The notes under the pieces are model-generated. The model did not search any database. It had not been told where the DNA came from and was given only the letters and a program-made list of their open reading frames with translations. From assembly GCA_963733675.1 (NCBI GenBank), contig CAVTET010000001.1, positions 768,001 to 832,000 of the forward strand: a stretch of DNA of 64,000 bases. Direction: 5' to 3'. This DNA is from an uncultured Methanosarcinaceae archaeon (GTDB lineage: Archaea; Halobacteriota; Methanosarcinia; Methanosarcinales; Methanosarcinaceae). Made by a program: the position numbers and the translations under genes. Below are positions 1-12,072 of the stretch, piece after piece (within the stretch, counting starts at the first letter, position 1; every line of letters starts with the position of its first letter).

Positions 1-871
1 CCAGTTTTGTTAGATCCTCTCCGTCCATTGTCTCAAGTACTTCATAGTCAATATACCTGCCCTGCTTGAGGACATTTTTAATCATGTCTGTAGCTGTAAT
101 GAGTATCTCTTTCGAACCATTTTGCTTGATTGCCCTGAATTTTGAGTATTTCACATGTGGGTTCACACCTACAGCTACGTTTGCCGGAATTGTCCAGGGA
201 GTTGTTGTCCATATAACTATGAAGGTGTCTTCACAATTTTTGATCTTGAATTTTACATAAATCGAAGGGTCTGTCCGCTCGGAATATTCAACCTCTGAAT
301 CTGCAATTGCAGTCTCACAGCGGGGGCACCAGTTGACAGAACGCTTGCCCATCTCCAGTAAGTCTTTTTCGTAGGCTTTTTTGAGTGTCCACCAGGCAGC
401 TTCGATGTAATCGTCTTTTAAGGTCATGTAAGGATCTGTCCATTGCATCCAGACACCAAGCCTTTGGAACTGTTCAGTCATTGCCTGCTTCTGGGTAATA
501 GCAAACTCTTTGCATTTTGCAATAAAATTTTCTACCCCAAAGCTCTCTATATCCTTCTTGGATTTGAAGCCGAGAATTCCTTCGACCTTGACCTCGATTG
601 GCAGGCCGTGCATATCCCAGCCAGGACGCTCAAGGATGTAGCGGTTGTTCATGGAATAATAGCGAAGAATAGAATCTTTGATGATCTTGTTCCAAGCAGT
701 TCCAAGATGTATATGCCCGGTAGTATACGGGGGGCCGTCAACAAAAAAAAACTTTCTTCCAATCTTGCGGAGCTCCCTGGTTTTTAGATACGCATCACTG
801 TCTTCCCAGAACTGCATTACTTTTTTTTCTATCCTACCTGCATCGTATTTGGAAATGATTTCTTTTATCAT
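1..871 (-). CDS. ileS: Isoleucyl-tRNA synthetase, N-terminal part (continues beyond the window's left edge)
   Basis: Manual translation from ATG at 871 gives [24 protein letters not shown]...[26 protein letters not shown]...[15 protein letters not shown]...[17 protein letters not shown]. This has the class Ia HIGH-type and GWDxHGLPIE motifs of archaeal IleRS. It is absent from the ORF track because it has no stop in the window. Confidence 0.95.
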
Positions 872-1537
872 ATAAGAATCTCCCTGATTGAAAATTAGAT
901 AAAGTGGAAATTCGATAAGTTTAGGCTAGATCTTGCAATTGCTCTATAGCTGCTGGTAATTAACTACTAAAGGTGGATTACTGAATAAATCTGCTATCTA
1001 CTGCATATATTCTAAATCTCAAACAAATATTTGAATCGAAAAATATCCGTATCAAATATAAAACAAACTTTGTCCTATAGGGGATATTAACAGATCTTCC
1101 GCATAGCAATCAATTTATCCAGTAATTACTGTACATAATTTAAGCTTTGTTATAACGTGAACAGAAAAACATTTTTTTTATTTTCTGTTTACGTCCACAA
1201 TATTGATCAATTCTAAAGACACATGGTAACATTTTTAGCATATGTAAATGTGTTAAAAGGCTTTATTTATGGGGAAGCGACAAAATATTGAGTTATTGAA
1301 CATAGTTAATACTAATTTTTTTCAGGCTAAAACAAGTTGCAGAATTGTGAAATAACGATTAATTTTTTGATTCCATCATATATTTAAAAAAATCTCAGTC
1401 TTTTTATTCCCATAGCCAACTTGCATAAAGTTCTCATTTATTTTATATGCAGTTTTGCAGGTGGTTCAAGCTCCCAGTTTTTCTGAGCTGAAGAATTGGA
1501 AGAATAAAGTTTTGGATCCCAGTAGTATAATCTGAAT

Positions 1538-2805
1538 GTCAACTACCTGCTACTTAAGTAACAGGGCTGGATATCTCTCTGATCAATTAATCATATTATC
1601 CGTGTGGTGGTTGACAGAAACCCATGAGACTCTAGATATACGTATAGTTTCATGTTCTATGTTCGATGTTTTTAGCGCCGTTCAAATCGGCACTAAGTTC
1701 AAAACTACAAGCTTTACACAGGAATTTCAATCCATTTATACTGTTTTTAGAGATATAGTCACATCTACAACAAATTCTAAAAGTATGCCCCAAATTCACA
1801 TATTCTGTTATTAATCCAGAACTCTTTGCCGTCATATTCGATGAATTGTTGTTAGTTCTATCCCTTATTCTTGTTAAGTCCTCTAAACCTATTACAGAAA
1901 CACCGTTTTCAACTGCAAATTTTACGATTTCTTTGGAGATACAATGATTAATATCTGTTATTAGACGTTTCTCTTTCCAGTTAAATGCTTTATCGTCCTC
2001 TTAGCTGACAAAATTCCCTTAAATCGTAATCTGGCTCTCATATTTTTATATGCGTTTCGTTTGTTTTTTATTTCTCCACCGGCAAAAGACTTGCATTTCT
2101 TGTCAGTAGTGGAAGCTACAGCTAAGAAATTTATACCTAGATCTATACCCATGAAAGTCCAAGCTTCTTCTATTTTCTTTGTCTGGAAGTTCTTGTGATG
2201 AGTAAGATGGAAATAATAATCACCATCTTTATGCTTCACTACTTTAGAAGCTTCAAATTTCCAAGGAGACTTAAGTAATTGTTTTGCATAAGGATAGTTA
2301 CAGATTTTATAGGTTTTCCTATCATGACTAAATGTAATTATACTCACTGAGTCTTCGGTTATAATATAATCTCTTATAAGATAATGTCATAGAAGTCAGA
2401 AAGTAAGTTATTTTTGCCAGTGACTCTTTCCTGTTTTTTCAAGTTCTATTATTGTTTTGTAGGTCTCAGCCACTTGTCTTGGAATGTTACAACTCACTTG
2501 AGACTTCAAACAGATGTTTCCTCGGAGATGAGCATAAACCATAGGTTATAATTTTCTAGCTGGAATGTTTCTCCCATTATCAAAAACTACACTAGAAACG
2601 TAGTTCATTCCATATGCATATTTTTTCAGAGTCTTTACTAAATCAAAATAAGTATCCATTATTTTCAATGGTATTGTTTTAGTAGATTCCATGACAAGTG
2701 TACTCATACAAAAAAATTTATAATTTTCGTGTGAATATTATACTAAAACAGGAGTTAATAAAATTACGCATTCCTCTCACATCTAAAGAAGTTTGAATCC
2801 TGTTT
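1538..2805 (-). mobile_element. IS200/IS605-family tnpB-only (IS1341-like) element, decayed
   Basis: tnpB pseudogene flanked by a right-end motif (minus strand ...CAGCCCTGTTACTTAAGTAGCAGGTAGTTGAC ending at 1538) and a left-end-like motif (GCATTCCTCTCACATCTAAAGAAG, ~2768-2800). Confidence 0.7.
1650..2692 (-). pseudogene. tnpB: TnpB RNA-guided nuclease pseudogene
   Basis: Fragments carry RuvC-I (MGIDLGINFLAV) and the zinc finger plus RuvC-III (CCRC...FLCKACSFELSADLNGAKNI). There is an ATG at 2692, an early TAA and several frameshifts. Confidence 0.88.
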
Positions 2806-2909
2806 CGATTCTTGAATTTTTTATTTTATATCTCAAATGCAGGATTATTACCCATTTTTTAGAATTGTTTAATAACTCATGAACAAGGCCCAAGTTCGTA
2901 AATCCACTA

Positions 2910-3783
2910 AGAGCCTATCCGAAAAATAATATACTTTCAATTTAAGATCATGTGTGGTAATGACAAAACGGAAAATTGTTCATGACTACGAAATTTCTGA
3001 AGATTATTGGAAAAAAATAGAACCTTTACTACCTGTACCTAAGCCAAAAAAGAAGTCTGGAAGACCTAGGAAGGGTGATAGGAAAATAATGAGTGACATC
3101 TTCTATCTCCTTGTTACTGGTTGCCAATGGAAAACATTGCCACGATTTTATGGAGCTCCAAGCACTGTACATGATCGATTTCAGGAATGGCAACTATCAG
3201 GCTTATTTGAGAGCATGTGGCTGGCTGGTCTTGTTGAGTGTGATTTCGAAAAAGGATTAGAATGGGAATGACAATCAACCGATGGTACTATGACAAAAGC
3301 ACCATTAAGTGGAGCTGGAACAGGAGCCAATCCTACTGATCGTGGTAAAAAAGGTACAAAAAGGATTGTTTTAACTGATGGTAAAGGCATACCACTTTCT
3401 GTTGTCGTTGATGGAGCCAATCGTCACGATAAAAAGCTTGTAAAAAGGACTTTAGACGCCATATTCTTTGAAAGACCTTCTCCAGAAGACATAATTCAGA
3501 ATATATACATGGATAAGGGTTATGATTTCACCGATATCAGAAAATTGGTTGAAGAATATGGTTATACTGCGCATATCAAAAGTCGTGGAGACGAAAACAT
3601 CAGAAGAGACATACCTGGTTTTAGGGCAAGAAGATGGGTTGTAGAAAGGACACATTCTTGGCTGAATAGATTCAGAAGACTCCTTATAAGATGGGAAAAG
3701 AAAATTGGAAATTACCTTGCTATCCTACATTTAGCGTGCGCGTTGATAACATTCAGATCAGCAGGACTTTTCAGATAGCCTCT
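2910..3783 (+). mobile_element. IS5-family (IS427/IS1031-like) insertion sequence
   Basis: 16-bp terminal inverted repeats AGAGCCTATCCGAAAA / TTTTCAGATAGCCTCT (2 mismatches), with TA on both flanks. The transposase has GRPR...GCQW..LP, DGANRHD, DKGYD and RWVVERTHSWL motifs. Confidence 0.9.
2954..3778 (+). pseudogene. IS5 transposase interrupted by an in-frame TGA at 3269-3271
   Basis: ORFs 2954..3271 and 3290..3778 are in the same frame: GAA TGG GAA TGA CAA TCA ACC GAT GGT. A Trp is expected at the TGA (LEWEWQS.DG). Confidence 0.85.
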
Positions 3784-7857: not shown

Positions 7858-8712
7858 GGGTTCCGTTGCAAAAAATCTTTTCTAATGATACAATAGAATA
7901 AAAAGAAAACCAAAGATAGTAACATGCTATCTAATTCCTTTAAATGGAAGCATTATGAAGGGGAAATTATCTTATTGAATGTAAGATGGTACTTAAAATA
8001 TGCATTAAGTTATAGAAATTTAAAGGAAATGATGGCAGAAAGGGGAGTAAAAGTCGACCATACAACAATCATGAGATGGGTACATCAATATTCCCCTGAA
8101 ATAGAAAAGAAGATAAGAAGACATTTAAGACCAACAAATGATTCGTGGAGAGTTGATGAAACCTATATCAAAGTAAAAGGTAAATGGAAATATTTTTACC
8201 GAGCAGTTGACTCAAATGGAGATACAATTGATTTCATGTTAAGTTCAAAACGAGATAGAAAGGCAGCGAAGAGATTCTTTAAGAAAGCTTTAAGTTCTAA
8301 TCATAATCAAATTCCAAGATTAATAACCGTTGATAAGAATCCAGCTTATCCACCTGCTATAGATAAACTAAAAATTGATAAAATACTACCTAAAAACGTA
8401 GGCATTCGACAAATCAAGTATTTGAATAACATTATAGAACAAGATCATAGATCTATAAAACGGATAATTCGTCCAATGTTAGGATTCCAGTCTTTTCGAT
8501 TTGCTAATAAGACTTTAAAAGGAATTGAAGCTATGAATATGATCAAAAAAGAACAAGTAAATGATTTAAATTACTTTGGTTTTGATGAAGTCAAATACAT
8601 TAATCAATTGTTTGGTATAGTTTTATAATGTTAATACATTTTTCTTGAATATTTTGACTTTTTTATACTCATAGATTTACATATTTTTTTTGAATTTTTT
8701 GCAACGGAACCC
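7858..8712 (+). mobile_element. IS6-family insertion sequence, apparently intact
   Basis: Perfect 19-bp TIRs GGGTTCCGTTGCAAAAAAT at 7858 and 8712. No target-site duplication is visible. Confidence 0.95.
7924..8628 (+). CDS. IS6-family DDE transposase
   Basis: 234 aa, with FKWKH, WRVDETYIKVKGKW, TVDKNPAY and LNNIIEQDHR motifs. Confidence 0.95.
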   Translation: MLSNSFKWKHYEGEIILLNVRWYLKYALSYRNLKEMMAERGVKVDHTTIMRWVHQYSPEIEKKIRRHLRPTNDSWRVDETYIKVKGKWKYFYRAVDSNGDTIDFMLSSKRDRKAAKRFFKKALSSNHNQIPRLITVDKNPAYPPAIDKLKIDKILPKNVGIRQIKYLNNIIEQDHRSIKRIIRPMLGFQSFRFANKTLKGIEAMNMIKKEQVNDLNYFGFDEVKYINQLFGIVL

Positions 8713-8725
8713 ATTTAAGTCTTAT

Positions 8726-10231
8726 TCATTTGAGTCGTAATCGAGATCCGATTTCTTTCATAAAACTGTTGATACTGCTGGAAGAATCTGTCACGATAAT
8801 TTTTGCTTTTTCTTCTGCACACTGTGGTTTAGGCTTTACTTGCCTGCTCTCTAGCCCAAGCATTGAATAAACTTTAGAGATAATGGTATCGAGCTCGACT
8901 AATTCAATACTTCTGGAATCATGAAGCATGAGAGCTTCTTTTCTGTCAAGGGTTGAAAGCCAGATATTTTTCTCTATCAAGATCCTGAGGAGTTCTCTTT
9001 CTTCTTCAAGCCTGCATTTTACGCGCCTTATTCTATCGACGAGGGATTCGATTTCGTTTTCAAAAACTTTATTCTGAGCTGAGGTTAAAGTGCTTTTTTT
9101 TCCCACAGTTTCATCGATTGAATCAATTTCCCTGACTAGGTTATCGTAAGGATAGATCTTAGGAACTCCGTCTTTTTTAAAGGTATAGCTGTGGTTCTTA
9201 TGAGATAAATGATGAGTTTCGATTTCTTTTCTCAGCAGGAACTCTTCCCCACAGCTATCACAGATAACCTTTACAGAGAGTTCGTTTTTCAGAGCAATGC
9301 TTGCTGCAGCATGCAGGTCTTCTGCTTCCTGGCGCAGTTTTTCTGTGCTGATCCCTCCAGATACTACAAGTTCAAATACAACTTTTCGTAGATTTTCCCT
9401 CTCTTCAGGCAGATTCCAGAGCATATGCTGTAGCAAGAGTGCCATTGTTCTGTCTACTGCCATGCAGCCACTGCTACAAGCTGCAACTTTTAGGACCTGG
9501 ATAACTTTCTTCCAGCGCCTGTCCGAAATGTCAATCTCTTGCAACTGAAGATTTTTCCTAAGTTCGAGAATAATAAGCTCAACATCAGGGTCAACATGAA
9601 TATTTTTTGCACTTTCTCGAAGTTTGTATATCTCCGAAACTTGGATATTTAAAGAAGGTTTGAAATCGCCATGGTCTCTGAAAAGGAGATTTCGGAAGTT
9701 TTCATCGTCCTGAATATAGGTGAGTCTATACCTGAACAAAAAGCGGTCATAAAGAGCTTCGAGACTTTCATCTTCTTCAGGCAGCTCGTTAGAAGCTCCG
9801 AAAACAGATAACAAAGGAACATCTACAATCTCTTTACCATTATGGTATTTGCGTTCATTCAGGATCGTCAAGAGACTGTTTAGTATTGCACTGCTAGCCT
9901 TAAAAATCTCATCTAGTAAAGCGATATGAGAAGTTGGGAGGCAGCCCTCTATTTTTCGGCGGAACTCGTCTTCTTCTAGAGCTTTTAATGAGAGAGGGCC
10001 AAATATCTCCTCTGGAGTTGAGAAGCTTGTAAGGAGATAATTAAAAAAATTTCCTCCTTCAATGGACTGACATATATTCTTTGCGAGCTGGGTTTTTGCC
10101 GTTCCTGGAGGACCAAGAAAAATTATGTTTTCCCCCGACAGTACGGCAATAAGAGAACCACTAATTTCGGCTTCCCGCTCTTTGAAATAGCTCATAAATG
10201 TGGATTTGATTTCGATGAGTTTTTCTTTCAA
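8726..10231 (-). CDS. MoxR/RavA-type AAA+ ATPase with a C2H2 zinc-finger insert
   Basis: Walker A GPPGTAKT, STPEEIFGP, Walker B LLDEIFKA, ASNELP, ALYDRF and ISDRRW are RavA signatures. TTG start after a GGAGG RBS. Confidence 0.88.
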   Translation of the reverse strand: MKEKLIEIKSTFMSYFKEREAEISGSLIAVLSGENIIFLGPPGTAKTQLAKNICQSIEGGNFFNYLLTSFSTPEEIFGPLSLKALEEDEFRRKIEGCLPTSHIALLDEIFKASSAILNSLLTILNERKYHNGKEIVDVPLLSVFGASNELPEEDESLEALYDRFLFRYRLTYIQDDENFRNLLFRDHGDFKPSLNIQVSEIYKLRESAKNIHVDPDVELIILELRKNLQLQEIDISDRRWKKVIQVLKVAACSSGCMAVDRTMALLLQHMLWNLPEERENLRKVVFELVVSGGISTEKLRQEAEDLHAAASIALKNELSVKVICDSCGEEFLLRKEIETHHLSHKNHSYTFKKDGVPKIYPYDNLVREIDSIDETVGKKSTLTSAQNKVFENEIESLVDRIRRVKCRLEEERELLRILIEKNIWLSTLDRKEALMLHDSRSIELVELDTIISKVYSMLGLESRQVKPKPQCAEEKAKIIVTDSSSSINSFMKEIGSRLRLK

Positions 10232-10567
10232 GGCCAGGCCTCCAGGCTACAAGATGAAATGTGAAATAAAATCTCACAGCCATTTCTCTGAAGTGTTTAG
10301 CCTGAATCTATTTATATCCGATTTTAATTCTTCCAATAATTCCGTTACGTTATCCAATTTATAGTTTCATTTAACTACCATACATACCTATATTGGTTAC
10401 AACTATGATTGTTCATTTTTTAAATTAATTAATCTCTTCTCGTAAAATAATAAGTATATTATTTATTATGTGGCTAAATTTGTCAATGGTGAAAGTTTCA
10501 ATTCTTATTTTGGTGGATCTTGTTCTCAATGAGAATATCAGATTATGTTTCGTCATTCCAGCAATTT

Positions 10568-10657
10568 TAGAAGTTTCATTAGGCCTATGAGAATTCATAT
10601 TATCAAAAGTAGCTTCAGGCTGTTACCCCGGTCCATTCCCACTCCTCTGGGGAATTC
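10568..10657 (-). CRISPR. Orphan type I-E-like mini-array remnant: one 29-nt repeat, 32-nt spacer, degenerate second repeat
   Basis: Minus strand GAATTCCCCAGAGGAGTGGGAATGGACCG (10657-10629) fits the I-E pattern GWRTTCCCCRCnnnnGYGGGGATRRACCG. A second GAATTCTC begins exactly 61 nt downstream (10596). No cas genes occur in the window. Confidence 0.5.
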
Positions 10658-10996
10658 ATTTGTATACACTTCAAACTTGTTTTCATTTTATAATATTTTT
10701 AAGATACTTGATGCCTTAATTTACTTTCAACTGGAGAATCACTGGTAAACGTTATTAAACAACTGGGTAATCCAAGGTCATTAATTAAAAGAAAATGATC
10801 CTATATTAATACTGTCACTCAATCATTTGCAAACTTGAACAATTACATATTCAACTATTAGATTATATTTGGGTAATACATTATAACATGTGGTGAATAA
10901 TAACTCCGAAACTAATAGTAAATTGAAATAATGAAAGGATAAAGAGCCAATCATATTTTACAGAAATTTAGTTAGAATAGCTACAAGTCTAGTTTA

Positions 10997-11150
10997 TTTA
11001 ATTTGTTTAGATAAAGTTCCTTTATTGTACCAAACTTTTGAATTCTGCGGGTTAATTTCAATTGCTTTGCCATAAGCTTTTATTGATTCATAATGCTTGT
11101 TTAAATAATCAAGAGCAACTCCTTTATTAAACCAAGGATCTGAATCCTGC
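10997..11150 (-). pseudogene. Tetratricopeptide-repeat protein fragment
   Basis: Translates to QDSDPWFNKGVALDYLNKHYESIKAYGKAIEINPQNSKVWYNKG, a typical Methanosarcina TPR unit. No start codon. Confidence 0.75.
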
Positions 11151-11329
11151 GATGCTAACTAGGATCAAAAAAGATCCAAAAAACGTTGAAAAATAATATT
11201 TACTTAGAACTATTTGGAATATTTTTGCATTTCTATTTAGAATATATAAAAAAATACAATAAATTAAATCTATTATATTTAATAGGTTTTCAGCATCTTC
11301 AAGTGGACCTTCTATCAAGCTTAAGGCAT

Positions 11330-11395
11330 CTCTTCACCTACAGATAACAAGATCAACTTTTTGACATTTCAGATCAGCCTGGTCACCTAAGCTAG
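11330..11395 (-). repeat. ~65-bp dispersed repeat, second copy at 50728-50797
   Basis: Minus strand TAGCTTAGGTGACCAGGCTGATCTGAAATGTCAAAAAGTTGATCTTGTTATCTGTAGG versus plus strand TAGCCTGGGCGACCAGACTGATCTAAAATGTCAAAAAAGTTGATCTTGTTAGCTGCAGG. Confidence 0.75.
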
Positions 11396-12072
11396 TAAAA
11401 AGAAGAAAATTCTAGTACCTTGTTTTATTGGGGGTATTAAATGAAAGACGGAAAAAATATATGTGGATATCCCAAATAAAGTTCTAAGCCGAAATCCGAC
11501 TATAGACACCATAACAGTGGATGTTTACGACGTTTATTGGTAAGGAATTAATCGAAAGAGTAATGCCGGTAAATTCAGTCTGCAGCCTGGTAACGATTCC
11601 TACAACATATAGAGATCCATTAAAGTCACTCTGGAATATGAAATAAGTAGGGATGGTTTTCGGGAAAGTTTTTATTCCCTCAACCAGCTACTATGTATTT
11701 ATTTCACTGAGTAAAACATATAATTATTTTTTCCTATTTTCGGAGTATTTTTTTTATGCAGTTTATTTTTCAGCAAGTTCTCTTCTGCATCTCTTTCATT
11801 CTCTTAAATTTTTGAGATTTGATCTATGTGTTATAATTATTATACAATAATATTTAACAATTATTTAGTTTAAGTTGTATAAAAATTTAACAATTTAGAT
11901 AAAAATAAATACCCTTTGACCGAGAACAAAGACAGTCTTTAGATCTCCGAATATAAACTAAATCAGATCCAGATATCCTCTTCCACATTATCAAATAATA
12001 ATTTGAGCGGATCAGAACGAATAACTCTCTATCTTCTCATCAGCAATGAAAAACAGAAATATTCACCAGCAG

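Follow-up and report, generated by a model that had tools for sequence, protein, structure and literature searches.

A two-repeat type I-E CRISPR remnant upstream of a bpMoxR-type ATPase gene in an uncultured Methanosarcinaceae archaeon is very probably a decaying genomic fossil

Introduction

When a CRISPR-like repeat and spacer stand alone behind a promoter-like element, are they a working RNA gene or what is left of an array? This question is raised by a short intergenic stretch in an uncultured Methanosarcinaceae archaeon (assembly GCA_963733675.1, contig CAVTET010000001.1). The window analysed here is 64,000 nt of that contig (positions 768,001 to 832,000 of the forward strand), and all coordinates below refer to it. 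A first-pass annotation, made from the sequence alone, described an orphan type I-E-like repeat-spacer unit upstream of an ATPase gene and left two explanations standing: a decayed array, or a functional element, that is, a crRNA-like regulator borrowing a Cascade encoded elsewhere or an RNA anti-CRISPR (Racr).

Layout of the locus

The 29-mer, the 32-nt segment that follows it, the element GAATTCTC and the TATA-like TTAAAAATATTATAAAA all lie on the minus strand where they had first been placed. In the direction of reading, the features are:

10658–10934, minus strand: captured promoter and 5′ UTR belonging to a family of paralogous genes for small secreted proteins, by alignment with four other genomic copies
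10702–10686, minus strand: TATA-like box TTAAAAATATTATAAAA, within the captured promoter and 5′ UTR
10629–10657, minus strand: R1, decayed type I-E CRISPR repeat of 29 nt, GAATTCCCCAGAGGAGTGGGAATGGACCG, 24/29 to the array repeat of genome G043
10597–10628, minus strand: S1, former spacer of 32 nt, with length and 61-nt period as in real arrays
10569–10596, minus strand: R2, second degenerate I-E repeat, 28 nt in the window after a 1-nt deletion
10596–10589, minus strand: GAATTCTC, the start of R2, 61 nt after the first GAATTC
10537–10568, minus strand: linker of 32 nt between R2 and the next repeat, possibly a second former spacer
10495–10536, minus strand: solitary I-B/III-type CRISPR repeat, whose 37-nt core (10495–10531) ends in ATTGAAAC
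10372–10475, minus strand: multi-copy element of ~104 nt, at least 11 genome copies at 74–82% identity
10232–10371, minus strand: conserved promoter and 5′ UTR of the ATPase gene, including the site 10299–10313 that S1 matches at 13/15; 127/141 columns invariant
8726–10231, minus strand: bpMoxR-type AAA+ ATPase gene, 501 aa (Pfam PF20030 bpMoxR, 6.3e-55; AAA_5; AAA_lid_8)

The linker length was read off the sequence, taking 10536 as the start of the I-B/III-type repeat. R1 starts at 10657 and R2 at 10596, giving the 61-nt period of type I-E arrays. Instead of several near-identical repeats, the I-E unit holds only two copies, and both are mutated.

Homology to type I-E arrays

The identity of the unit as a type I-E repeat and spacer is supported by its homology to I-E arrays of the same genus and order. 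G043, a genome of the same genus, carries a 25-repeat type I-E array beside an I-E cas operon (cas2e, cas1e, cas6e, cas5e, cas7e, cse1 and cas3), and R1 agrees with its repeat at 24/29 positions. In a search of both strands of the 3.92 Mb genome with the G043 repeat, R1, at 5 mismatches, was the sole site with 8 or fewer; the runners-up were one site at 9 mismatches and ten at 10. The I-E repeat of G038 (same order), which lies beside cas6e, matches R1 at 22/29 positions (7 mismatches), the next genome site having 9. A search with R1 itself found no further copy in the window with up to 3 mismatches allowed (0/100 shuffles contained one), nor in the genome as a whole with up to 8. This repeat family is present in 44/284 genomes of the order and 7/58 of the genus, always with a 61-nt period, and the reversed-sequence control of the survey gave 0 matches. 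Moreover, the R1 sequence of the ancestor of the four species that share the locus, reconstructed by parsimony before the G043 repeat had been seen, equals that repeat at 28/29 positions, including the loop AGGC.

The first-pass annotation had taken the 8 nt of GAATTCTC as a second repeat. This was correct, and the similarity extends further, as is seen in the orthologous copies of two sister species (GAGTTCCCCATAGGCTTGG in G019, GAGTTCCCCATAGGTTTGG in G064); the window copy has a 1-nt deletion. Similarity of R2 to the I-E repeat covers about the first 19 nt; the 3′ half is divergent, resembling a terminal repeat in this. The last repeat of the G043 array likewise retains only its 5′ part. When the genomes of G019 and G064 were searched whole with the first 19 nt of the G043 repeat (up to 3 mismatches; reversed control, 0 matches), the R2 orthologue was the sole match in each.

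The locus thus has in common with G043-type arrays a 29-nt repeat, a 32-nt spacer, the 61-nt period, an 8-nt 3′ handle region (ATGGACCG here, ATGAACCG in the G043 array) and a degenerate terminal repeat. It differs from them in having just two mutated repeats, a broken stem-loop and no leader, and in the cas genes not being found in the genome. Synteny with real arrays is lacking: in G043 and G051 the I-E array is ~260–280 kb away from the ATPase orthologue. The three repeat sequences were absent from the full texts searched; supplementary repeat-collection tables, which lay outside that search, could contain them.

Rfam scans of the 29-mer region gave no match at E≤10. This result is uninformative, since intact G043 repeats are also missed by Rfam at E≤1. 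RF01315 (CRISPR-DR2), tried as an I-E model, is the wrong family and gave sub-threshold noise only. Because Rfam holds no model for this archaeal I-E repeat family, automated screens will overlook relics of this kind.

Decay across four species

The block is common to four species, which share it by descent at an orthologous chromosomal locus. Across the four, 19/29 columns are invariant in R1, 23/32 in S1, 21/29 in R2 and 26/37 in the linker, as compared with 200/275 and 77/105 in neighbouring non-coding DNA. The ATPase promoter (127/141) and the ATPase coding sequence (277/300) are far more constant, and R1 is the least conserved segment. The I-E unit therefore changes as fast as the flanking non-coding DNA, and its substitution pattern is neutral-like. 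Indels also disrupt the unit in sister species: R1 has lost 2 nt in G019, and S1 has lost 1 nt in both G019 and G064.

R1 does not form the stable Cas6e hairpin of a 7-bp stem and 4-nt loop. Its predicted fold has a bulged stem at −7.2 kcal/mol (z = −0.54), and 61/200 shuffles fold as well; for the intact G043 repeat the values are −12.8 kcal/mol and z = −2.53, equalled by 5/200 shuffles.

Search for cas genes

A Pfam search of the genome returned no match to Cas1, Cse1, Cas6e or Cas6. Similarly, tblastn found nothing at E≤1e-5 for the ORFs encoded in the G007 and G023 cas loci of types I-B, III and I-E, and nothing at E≤1e-2 for ORFs of the G043 I-E operon; the family-typed queries numbered 12 from the G007/G023 loci and 7 from the G043 operon. 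The three sister genomes with the same relic, which are 73–92% complete, likewise yielded no cas6e. The assembly of this genome comprises 15 contigs and is 92% complete, and CRISPR arrays and cas islands are often lost in assembly gaps; the absence of cas genes is therefore not proven. A lack of any I-E system or similar repeat, which the first-pass annotation had named as evidence against its reading, holds for this genome and does not hold for related ones, as the G043-type arrays attest.

Upstream promoter, ATPase gene and neighbours

The AT-rich segment with a TATA-like box upstream of R1 had been described as a leader. The sequence is real, but it is the promoter and 5′ UTR of a small secreted-protein gene family and not a CRISPR leader. 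Its four other genomic copies lead into ORFs encoding 35, 89, 93 and 105 aa, with N-termini that resemble signal peptides by eye. Our locus lacks the coding sequence, even as a remnant further downstream, and R1 starts at the expected position of the ATG. We had considered a MITE for 10658–10934; this was rejected, since the other copies continue straight into the small ORFs, and it is the same continuity that identifies the segment as a gene-family promoter and 5′ UTR. Accordingly, the 277 nt upstream of R1 supply no leader of the kind found in type I-E arrays. A direct comparison, which took in the 43 nt before R1 (10658–10700) out of these 277, found no match to the array-flank loci of G043, G048, G050 and G051.

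The downstream gene, first called RavA-like, does encode an AAA+ ATPase; Pfam types it as bpMoxR (PF20030), the MoxR domain of MoxR-vWA-beta-propeller ternary systems. A role in biological conflict has been proposed for systems of this kind. An orthologue is present in 59/59 genus genomes searched, and the promoter portion 10232–10340 is also conserved in further genus members. The immediate neighbours are a TPR gene fragment, the bpMoxR ATPase gene and an IS240-type transposase gene, and there were no phage-like genes among those typed. Contigs from metatranscriptome libraries of two studies span the relic contiguously with the 5′ end of the ATPase gene. The relic stretch may thus be transcribed, on the evidence of RNA-library contigs that carry no strand, end or processing information and possibly include DNA.

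Could the unit be functional?

A crRNA-like regulator of the crlRNA/CreA kind would be an R1-S1-R2 RNA that guides Cascade to the bpMoxR ATPase promoter for non-cleaving repression, either now, through a Cascade in the unassembled part of the genome, or formerly, in an ancestor. In favour of this, the unit has the same orientation as the ATPase gene and lies about 330 bp upstream, right behind a promoter-like element; RNA-library contigs cover it, and the target would be a bpMoxR gene, of a class with a proposed role in conflict. The spacer match to the conserved ATPase promoter on which the first-pass annotation drew does exist, S1 positions 8–22 agreeing at 13/15 with 10299–10313. It is nevertheless weak: of 200 shuffled spacers compared with the same intergenic DNA, 5 equal it, few as these are. 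The seed mismatch noticed at first sight also holds, positions 1–7 of S1 pairing at 1/7. Moreover, the triplet 5′ of the would-be protospacer on the plus strand is TGA, which is none of the I-E PAMs of E. coli (AAG, ATG, AGG and GAG), although the PAM of an archaeal system may differ from that set. In G019 and G064, deletions and substitutions fall within the matching stretch of S1, and the highly conserved promoter shows no compensating changes.

As described in the part of the crlRNA study drawn on here (bioRxiv 10.1101/2024.12.27.630466), type I-C crlRNAs repress defence-gene promoters and pair PAM-proximally next to a PAM. Our locus shares with these and with CreA a repeat-spacer-repeat arrangement near the promoter of a neighbour and a partial spacer-promoter similarity, but differs in having neither a PAM nor PAM-proximal pairing, in that no Cascade was found, and in lacking both adjacency to a cas operon and conservation. 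With a degraded hairpin besides, we regard a crRNA-like regulator as very unlikely. We hold a more specific version to be highly improbable too, namely that R1-S1-R2 is a relic or re-activatable 'supervisor' of the bpMoxR ATPase, a one-spacer mini-array behind a captured promoter through which Cascade once throttled the gene. If true, it would extend the supervision of neighbouring genes from bacterial type I-C to archaeal type I-E, and would be an example of such a module after loss of Cascade.

The unit might instead be an orphan mini-array on standby, kept for use by a horizontally acquired I-E system as memory or as an anti-cas device. I-E systems with the same repeat family do circulate in the genus and order (44/284 genomes), and anti-cas spacers have been described in orphan arrays (Almendros et al. 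2016, as presented in PMC8616872). A close parallel is offered by the small I-F orphan arrays found in E. coli lineages, as far as the relevant portion of PMC8616872 describes them: there too a remnant occupies a fixed locus in related lineages that lack the cognate cas genes. Those arrays, however, are intact and expressed and carry anti-cas spacers, whereas here the repeats are decayed and the spacer is without a match. An anti-cas role was considered and dropped, as S1 and the linker have 12/32 and 11/32 mismatches to I-E cas loci, values that 99/200 and 51/200 shuffles reach. The search for a target suggested by the first-pass annotation likewise found no protospacer of S1 in viral contigs, phages, plasmids or the archaeon's own genome. 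An exact degenerate 23-mer of S1 had 0 matches in the viral contigs, blastn of S1 against phages and plasmids gave only hits at E of about 1–9 from unrelated bacterial hosts, and a comparison of S1 and the linker with the rest of the genome found no self-target and no other copy of the linker. A degenerate 20-mer of the linker matched two viral contigs, one of them 65% GC and neither with tblastx similarity to the genome; the matches extend by only 2–6 nt, and for an assumed collection size we estimate that two of them are at chance level. Together with the neutral-rate substitutions, the indels and the broken stem, this leaves the standby mini-array with very little credibility.

We consider it extremely unlikely that the unit acts as a Racr or decoy, its lone repeat RNA titrating away Cas6e or Cascade subunits from an I-E system, whether resident or newly arriving. 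With solitary repeat units the locus shares a sequence that resembles a repeat, lies apart from any cas locus and sits right downstream of a promoter-like element; in the portion of PMC10651486 concerned with them, such units act as Racrs in phages and plasmids. The known examples reside on viruses, prophages and plasmids in hosts with a cognate system; about 90% of Racr hosts are given there as having CRISPR-Cas, with an 83% subtype match. Our unit, in contrast, is chromosomal, vertically inherited and orthologous in four species, flanked by a TPR gene fragment and by a gene that is conserved throughout the genus. Searches of this genome and the three sister genomes revealed no cognate system, and the Cas6e-binding hairpin is broken. 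Nor is R1 solitary under the SRUFinder rule of the same paper, which excludes repeats accompanied by a partial repeat within 100 bp, since R2 begins 61 nt from the start of R1 and 32 nt downstream of its end.

That AT/GC-mixed intergenic DNA resembles an I-E repeat by chance, for which a single full unit and a 29-mer with no Rfam match might speak, has a negligible probability and is already refuted by the unique matches of R1 to the G038 and G043 repeats (with a 4-mismatch gap to the next site for the latter), by R2 being the sole match in two other genomes, by the exact 61-nt spacing, and by the convergence of the four-species ancestor on the real repeat.

A neutrally decaying fossil

Of the two explanations first offered, the decayed array is borne out by the homologous repeat, the 61-nt period and a second repeat degenerate in the manner of G043. 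The functional one, whether crRNA-like or Racr, is not: no cas genes were found, the hairpin is degraded, the unit evolves at the rate of its flanks, and the promoter match has neither PAM nor seed pairing. Very probably, then, the stretch is a genomic fossil, two decayed I-E repeats around one spacer (R1-S1-R2), with the 32-nt linker and a stray I-B/III-type repeat behind them, that persist as a neutrally decaying CRISPR remnant. The most likely origin of R1-S1-R2 is the trailer end of an array now lost.

We infer an absence of function and the following order of events. The ancestor of the four-species clade would have had, or gained a fragment of, the I-E system that some members of the genus retain intact; loss of the cas genes and of the remaining array would have followed. 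The promoter of an unrelated small-protein gene would have come to sit directly upstream of the remnant, which may have drifted neutrally since. Passive transcription is conceivable, whether it starts at the captured promoter or reads through towards the ATPase gene, and, with no Cas6e or Cascade, such a relic RNA would be without CRISPR function.

The outcome is mostly a clean negative, in that an attractive candidate for an orphan crRNA regulator turns out to be the remnant of a decaying array. It nonetheless suggests that this methanogen clade once held an I-E repeat family still active in its relatives, and that all detectable CRISPR-Cas has since been lost. It may also serve as a worked example of how a fossil can be told from a functional solitary repeat, through the arrays of relatives, substitution rates in the flanks, the hairpin, and PAM plus seed.

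A second repeat family beside the unit

The near-intact core of the I-B/III-type repeat lies 37 nt beyond R2, with a 5-nt insertion near its 5′ end (by eye). It agrees at 30/37 positions with the repeat of two real arrays in G007, which adjoin I-B and type III cas operons, and the repeat also matches arrays of many genomes of the same genus. On Rfam CRISPR-DR7 (RF01320) the core scores 33.8 bits (E = 1.8e-4), below the gathering score of 37, which the G019 orthologue exceeds at 37.2 bits. The element thus shares with the CRISPR-DR7 repeats of the genus's I-B and type III arrays an end-to-end match to the model and the ATTGAAAC terminus, and differs from them in being a single copy outside any array, in its score under the gathering value and in its altered 5′ end. 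Its 37 nt are somewhat better conserved than the flanks (31/37 invariant as against about 73%), a surplus that is not significant by a rough normal approximation (one-sided p about 0.1). A further degenerate I-B/III-type repeat upstream, at a 78-nt period and ending in AATGAAAC at 10573, was considered and rejected; it agrees at 15/37 by eye, and the stretch is R2.

The gap between R2 and the I-B/III-type repeat is exactly 32 nt, a length for which decay of a fossil offers no explanation.

Elsewhere in the genome there are at least 6 further scattered, decayed I-B/III-type repeats and no intact array, which fits a lineage-wide loss of CRISPR-Cas. Scattered repeat fossils of both the I-E and the I-B/III type could be used to date that loss.

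A degenerate type I-E repeat pair upstream of the ATPase gene

The stretch upstream of the ATPase gene is a degenerated orphan CRISPR remnant, one more example of a kind already described (review PMC8616872). The elements reported in the first-pass annotation, namely a TATA-like box, a 29-mer (R1), a 32-nt segment (S1) and a second GAATTC, lie exactly where it placed them.

Layout of the relic and its surroundings, in minus-strand order
10658-10934, minus: gene-family promoter and 5′ UTR, 277 nt, directly upstream of R1
10702..10686, minus: TATA-like TTAAAAATATTATAAAA (sequence inspection)
10657..10629, minus: R1, 29-mer GAATTCCCCAGAGGAGTGGGAATGGACCG (sequence inspection)
10628..10597, minus: S1, 32-nt segment (sequence inspection)
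10596, minus: second GAATTC, start of the second repeat (R2), 61 nt after the first
Between R2 and the I-B/III-type repeat, minus: 32-nt linker, downstream of R2
10495-10536, minus: I-B/III-type CRISPR repeat (5′ start at 10536 and a 5-nt insertion, both placed by eye)
Between that repeat and the next element, minus: 19 unique nt
10372-10475, minus: ~104-nt multi-copy element
10232-10371, minus: ATPase promoter with its 5′ UTR, well conserved, upstream of the gene

R1 is a type I-E repeat, as first proposed. It has one match in the window at ≤3 mismatches (0/100 shuffles) and is single in the 3.92-Mb genome at ≤8. The suggested alignment to a repeat database yielded nothing for the 29-mer in Rfam (scan of 9800-11500, E≤10), and its identity is borne out by array repeats of relatives. 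In a genome of the same order (G038), GAGTTCCCCACACACGTGGGGATGAACCG recurs every 61 nt beside a cas6e gene; against both strands of the window's own genome this repeat finds R1 as its single best site (7 mismatches), followed by one site with 9 mismatches and sixteen with 10. A degenerate form of the I-E repeat (≤3 mismatches) occurs in 44/284 genomes of the order and 7/58 other genomes of the genus, the reversed control giving 0 matches, and full arrays of 25, 56, 64 and 118 repeats are present in four same-genus genomes. The 25-repeat array, in G043, has the repeat GAGTTCCCCACAGGCGTGGGGATGAACCG and is adjoined by Cas2e, Cas1e, a Cas6e fragment, Cas5e, Cas7e, Cse1 and Cas3. R1 is identical to this repeat at 24/29 positions (5 mismatches) and is the genome's only site at ≤8 mismatches; next come a single site with 9 mismatches and ten sites with 10. 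Moreover, the parsimony ancestor of R1 in four species, fixed before any same-genus array was known, equals the G043 repeat at 28/29 positions, loop included. The G043 cas6e itself (L059, G043:C1:979844-980479) has an in-frame TAA that leaves intact only a 118-aa C-terminal ORF, and this 'intact' I-E system may be decaying as well.

The second repeat is real as well. Three further species of the genus, G055, G019 and G064, share the relic locus, and these, the window's own genome (G000) and G066 were searched at ≤3 mismatches with the 5′-most 19 nt of the G043 repeat. Four genomes gave one match each, always at the relic locus: R1 in G000 and G055, and R2, thus recovered independently of the window, with 2 mismatches in G019 and 3 in G064. 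G066 gave none, nor did the reversed control. The window's R2 is short by one base (GAATT-CTC...) and its 3′ half is unrelated to the I-E repeat; likewise, the last repeat of the G043 array retains only the first ~13 nt. The check for conservation in relatives thus places the relic block at the same ATPase locus in four species: among 14 ATPase loci examined, 4 have the whole block, G066 shares 10235-10475 only, five have the promoter only and four show no match. The ATPase, a bpMoxR-type AAA+ protein (PF20030, 6.3e-55), was found in 59/59 genus genomes searched. Directly downstream of its gene lies an IS240/IS6-family DDE transposase gene (7924-8628, plus strand; PF13610, 4.2e-47).

A second CRISPR type and further repeat fossils

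The Rfam scan of 9800-11500 also turned up an element missed in the first-pass annotation: 10495-10531 on the minus strand, CATTGAGAACAAGATCCACCAAAATAAGAATTGAAAC, aligns over the full length of the CRISPR-DR7 model (RF01320) with 33.8 bits (gathering score 37; E = 1.8e-4). This 37-mer is single-copy in window and genome. It resembles the repeats of many real same-genus arrays, matching at 30/37 positions the repeat of two arrays in G007 (38 and 52 copies), which adjoin operons for type III proteins and for the type I-B proteins Cas8b, Cas7, Cas5, Cas3, Cas1 and Cas4. Remnants of two CRISPR types are therefore juxtaposed, the I-B/III-type repeat following the degenerate R2 after exactly 32 nt.

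A k-mer scan found no intact CRISPR array in the genome. At least 7 decayed I-B/III-type repeats are scattered through it, window copy included, with 7-11 mismatches to a real repeat, and background matches mount only from 12 mismatches up. Copies outside the window (8-11 mismatches) lie at G000:C1:852382-852571, C4:700775, C4:755911, C1:1126086 and C12:154996. A solitary I-E repeat, 27/29 identical by eye to that of G043, occurs in the same-genus genome G001 (L058, G001:C44, about 880-908, minus strand), where neither cse1 nor cas6e was found. Therefore, repeat fossils left after CRISPR-Cas loss recur in the genus. At its start, contig C1 carries an AT-rich unit of ~97 nt in about 14-17 tandem copies (G000:C1:1300-2630), which is not a CRISPR array.

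Decayed array or crRNA-like regulator

Of the two readings first offered, a decayed array and a crRNA-like regulator borrowing a Cascade encoded elsewhere, the former stands. The evidence speaks against a functional unit because no partner proteins were found, drift looks neutral, the hairpin is degraded, the promoter match is weak and no target was found. The proposed search for cse1 and cas6e elsewhere came back empty: this genome gave no match to the Pfam models of Cas1, Cse1, Cas6e and Cas6, and none in tblastn with ORFs from the I-B and type III loci of G007 and the I-E locus of G023 (E≤1e-5) or from the G043 I-E operon (E≤1e-2). Cas6e was likewise not found in G055, G064 and G019 (positive control G043, 1.8e-46), although absence is not proven since the genomes are 73-92% complete.

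Drift in the relic looks neutral. In the four-species alignment, invariant columns number 19/29 in R1, 23/32 in S1, 21/29 in R2 and 26/37 in the linker, compared with 200/275 and 77/105 in the adjacent non-coding elements, 127/141 in the ATPase promoter and 277/300 in its coding sequence. The I-B/III-type repeat, at 31/37, is slightly above its flanks, which is not significant by a rough approximation. G019 has deletions of 2 nt in R1 and 1 nt in S1, G064 one of 1 nt in S1, and R1 is also where the variants seen in metatranscriptome contigs cluster. The R1 hairpin is degraded: it folds with a bulge at -7.2 kcal/mol (z = -0.54), whereas the intact repeat reaches -12.8 kcal/mol (z = -2.53).

The reported match of S1 to the ATPase promoter exists (13/15 at spacer positions 8-22), with the seed as poorly paired as noted (1/7 at positions 1-7), but 5/200 shuffled spacers equal it. 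The putative protospacer is preceded on its 5′ side by TGA, which is absent from the E. coli I-E PAMs, a set that may not be the host's. In the crlRNAs described in bioRxiv 10.1101/2024.12.27.630466, pairing starts at the PAM-proximal end, next to a PAM. Of the defining features of crlRNA and CreA regulators, the relic lacks such pairing, a detected Cascade and a position at a cas locus; of the Racr features compared (PMC10651486), it lacks a mobile-element location, solitariness, an intact hairpin and a detected cognate system in its host. Neither S1 nor the linker yielded a target when compared, as suggested for the spacer, with viral contigs, phages, plasmids and the host genome, or when compared with I-E cas loci.

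Captured promoter and flanking elements

The TATA-like box is present but belongs to the promoter of a small-ORF gene family, not to a CRISPR-specific leader. The multi-copy state of 10658-10934 first suggested a MITE, which was rejected: at about 10 loci homology reaches an ATG and ORFs of 35, 89, 93 and 105 aa, so that this element is a gene-family promoter and 5′ UTR. Further copies of ~275 nt lie at G000:C7:~2767-3024, C1:~1010487-1010761, C1:~355600-355873 and C3:~362144-362415. The ORF N-termini resemble signal peptides by eye, and a GPYGC motif is common to three of the four. The window copy stops short of its coding sequence exactly at the ATG, R1 beginning where that codon would be expected, and no coding remnant was found in 10200-10700.

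Given this captured promoter, transcription of the relic would be expected, and metatranscriptome contigs from three runs in two studies provide only a weak hint of it, as such contigs reveal neither strand nor ends nor processing, and the libraries may contain DNA. X11 (10178-10761) and X12 (10178-10593) are single contigs that extend into the 5′ end of the ATPase gene. In X13, several contigs span 10342-10873 and another one spans 10100-10336.

The ~104-nt element has at least 11 genomic copies (74-82% identity), a conserved core ending ...GTAAACAATATAGGTA.TTATGGTAGTT and no Rfam match; a small RNA, a MITE and a promoter module are candidates. Farther upstream, 10993-11400 (minus strand) holds the tail and further pieces of a gene with TPR repeats (internal period 102 nt), probably a pseudogene because the frame is broken into short ORFs. 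Its paralogous family is very large, with hundreds of BLAST matches in the genome.
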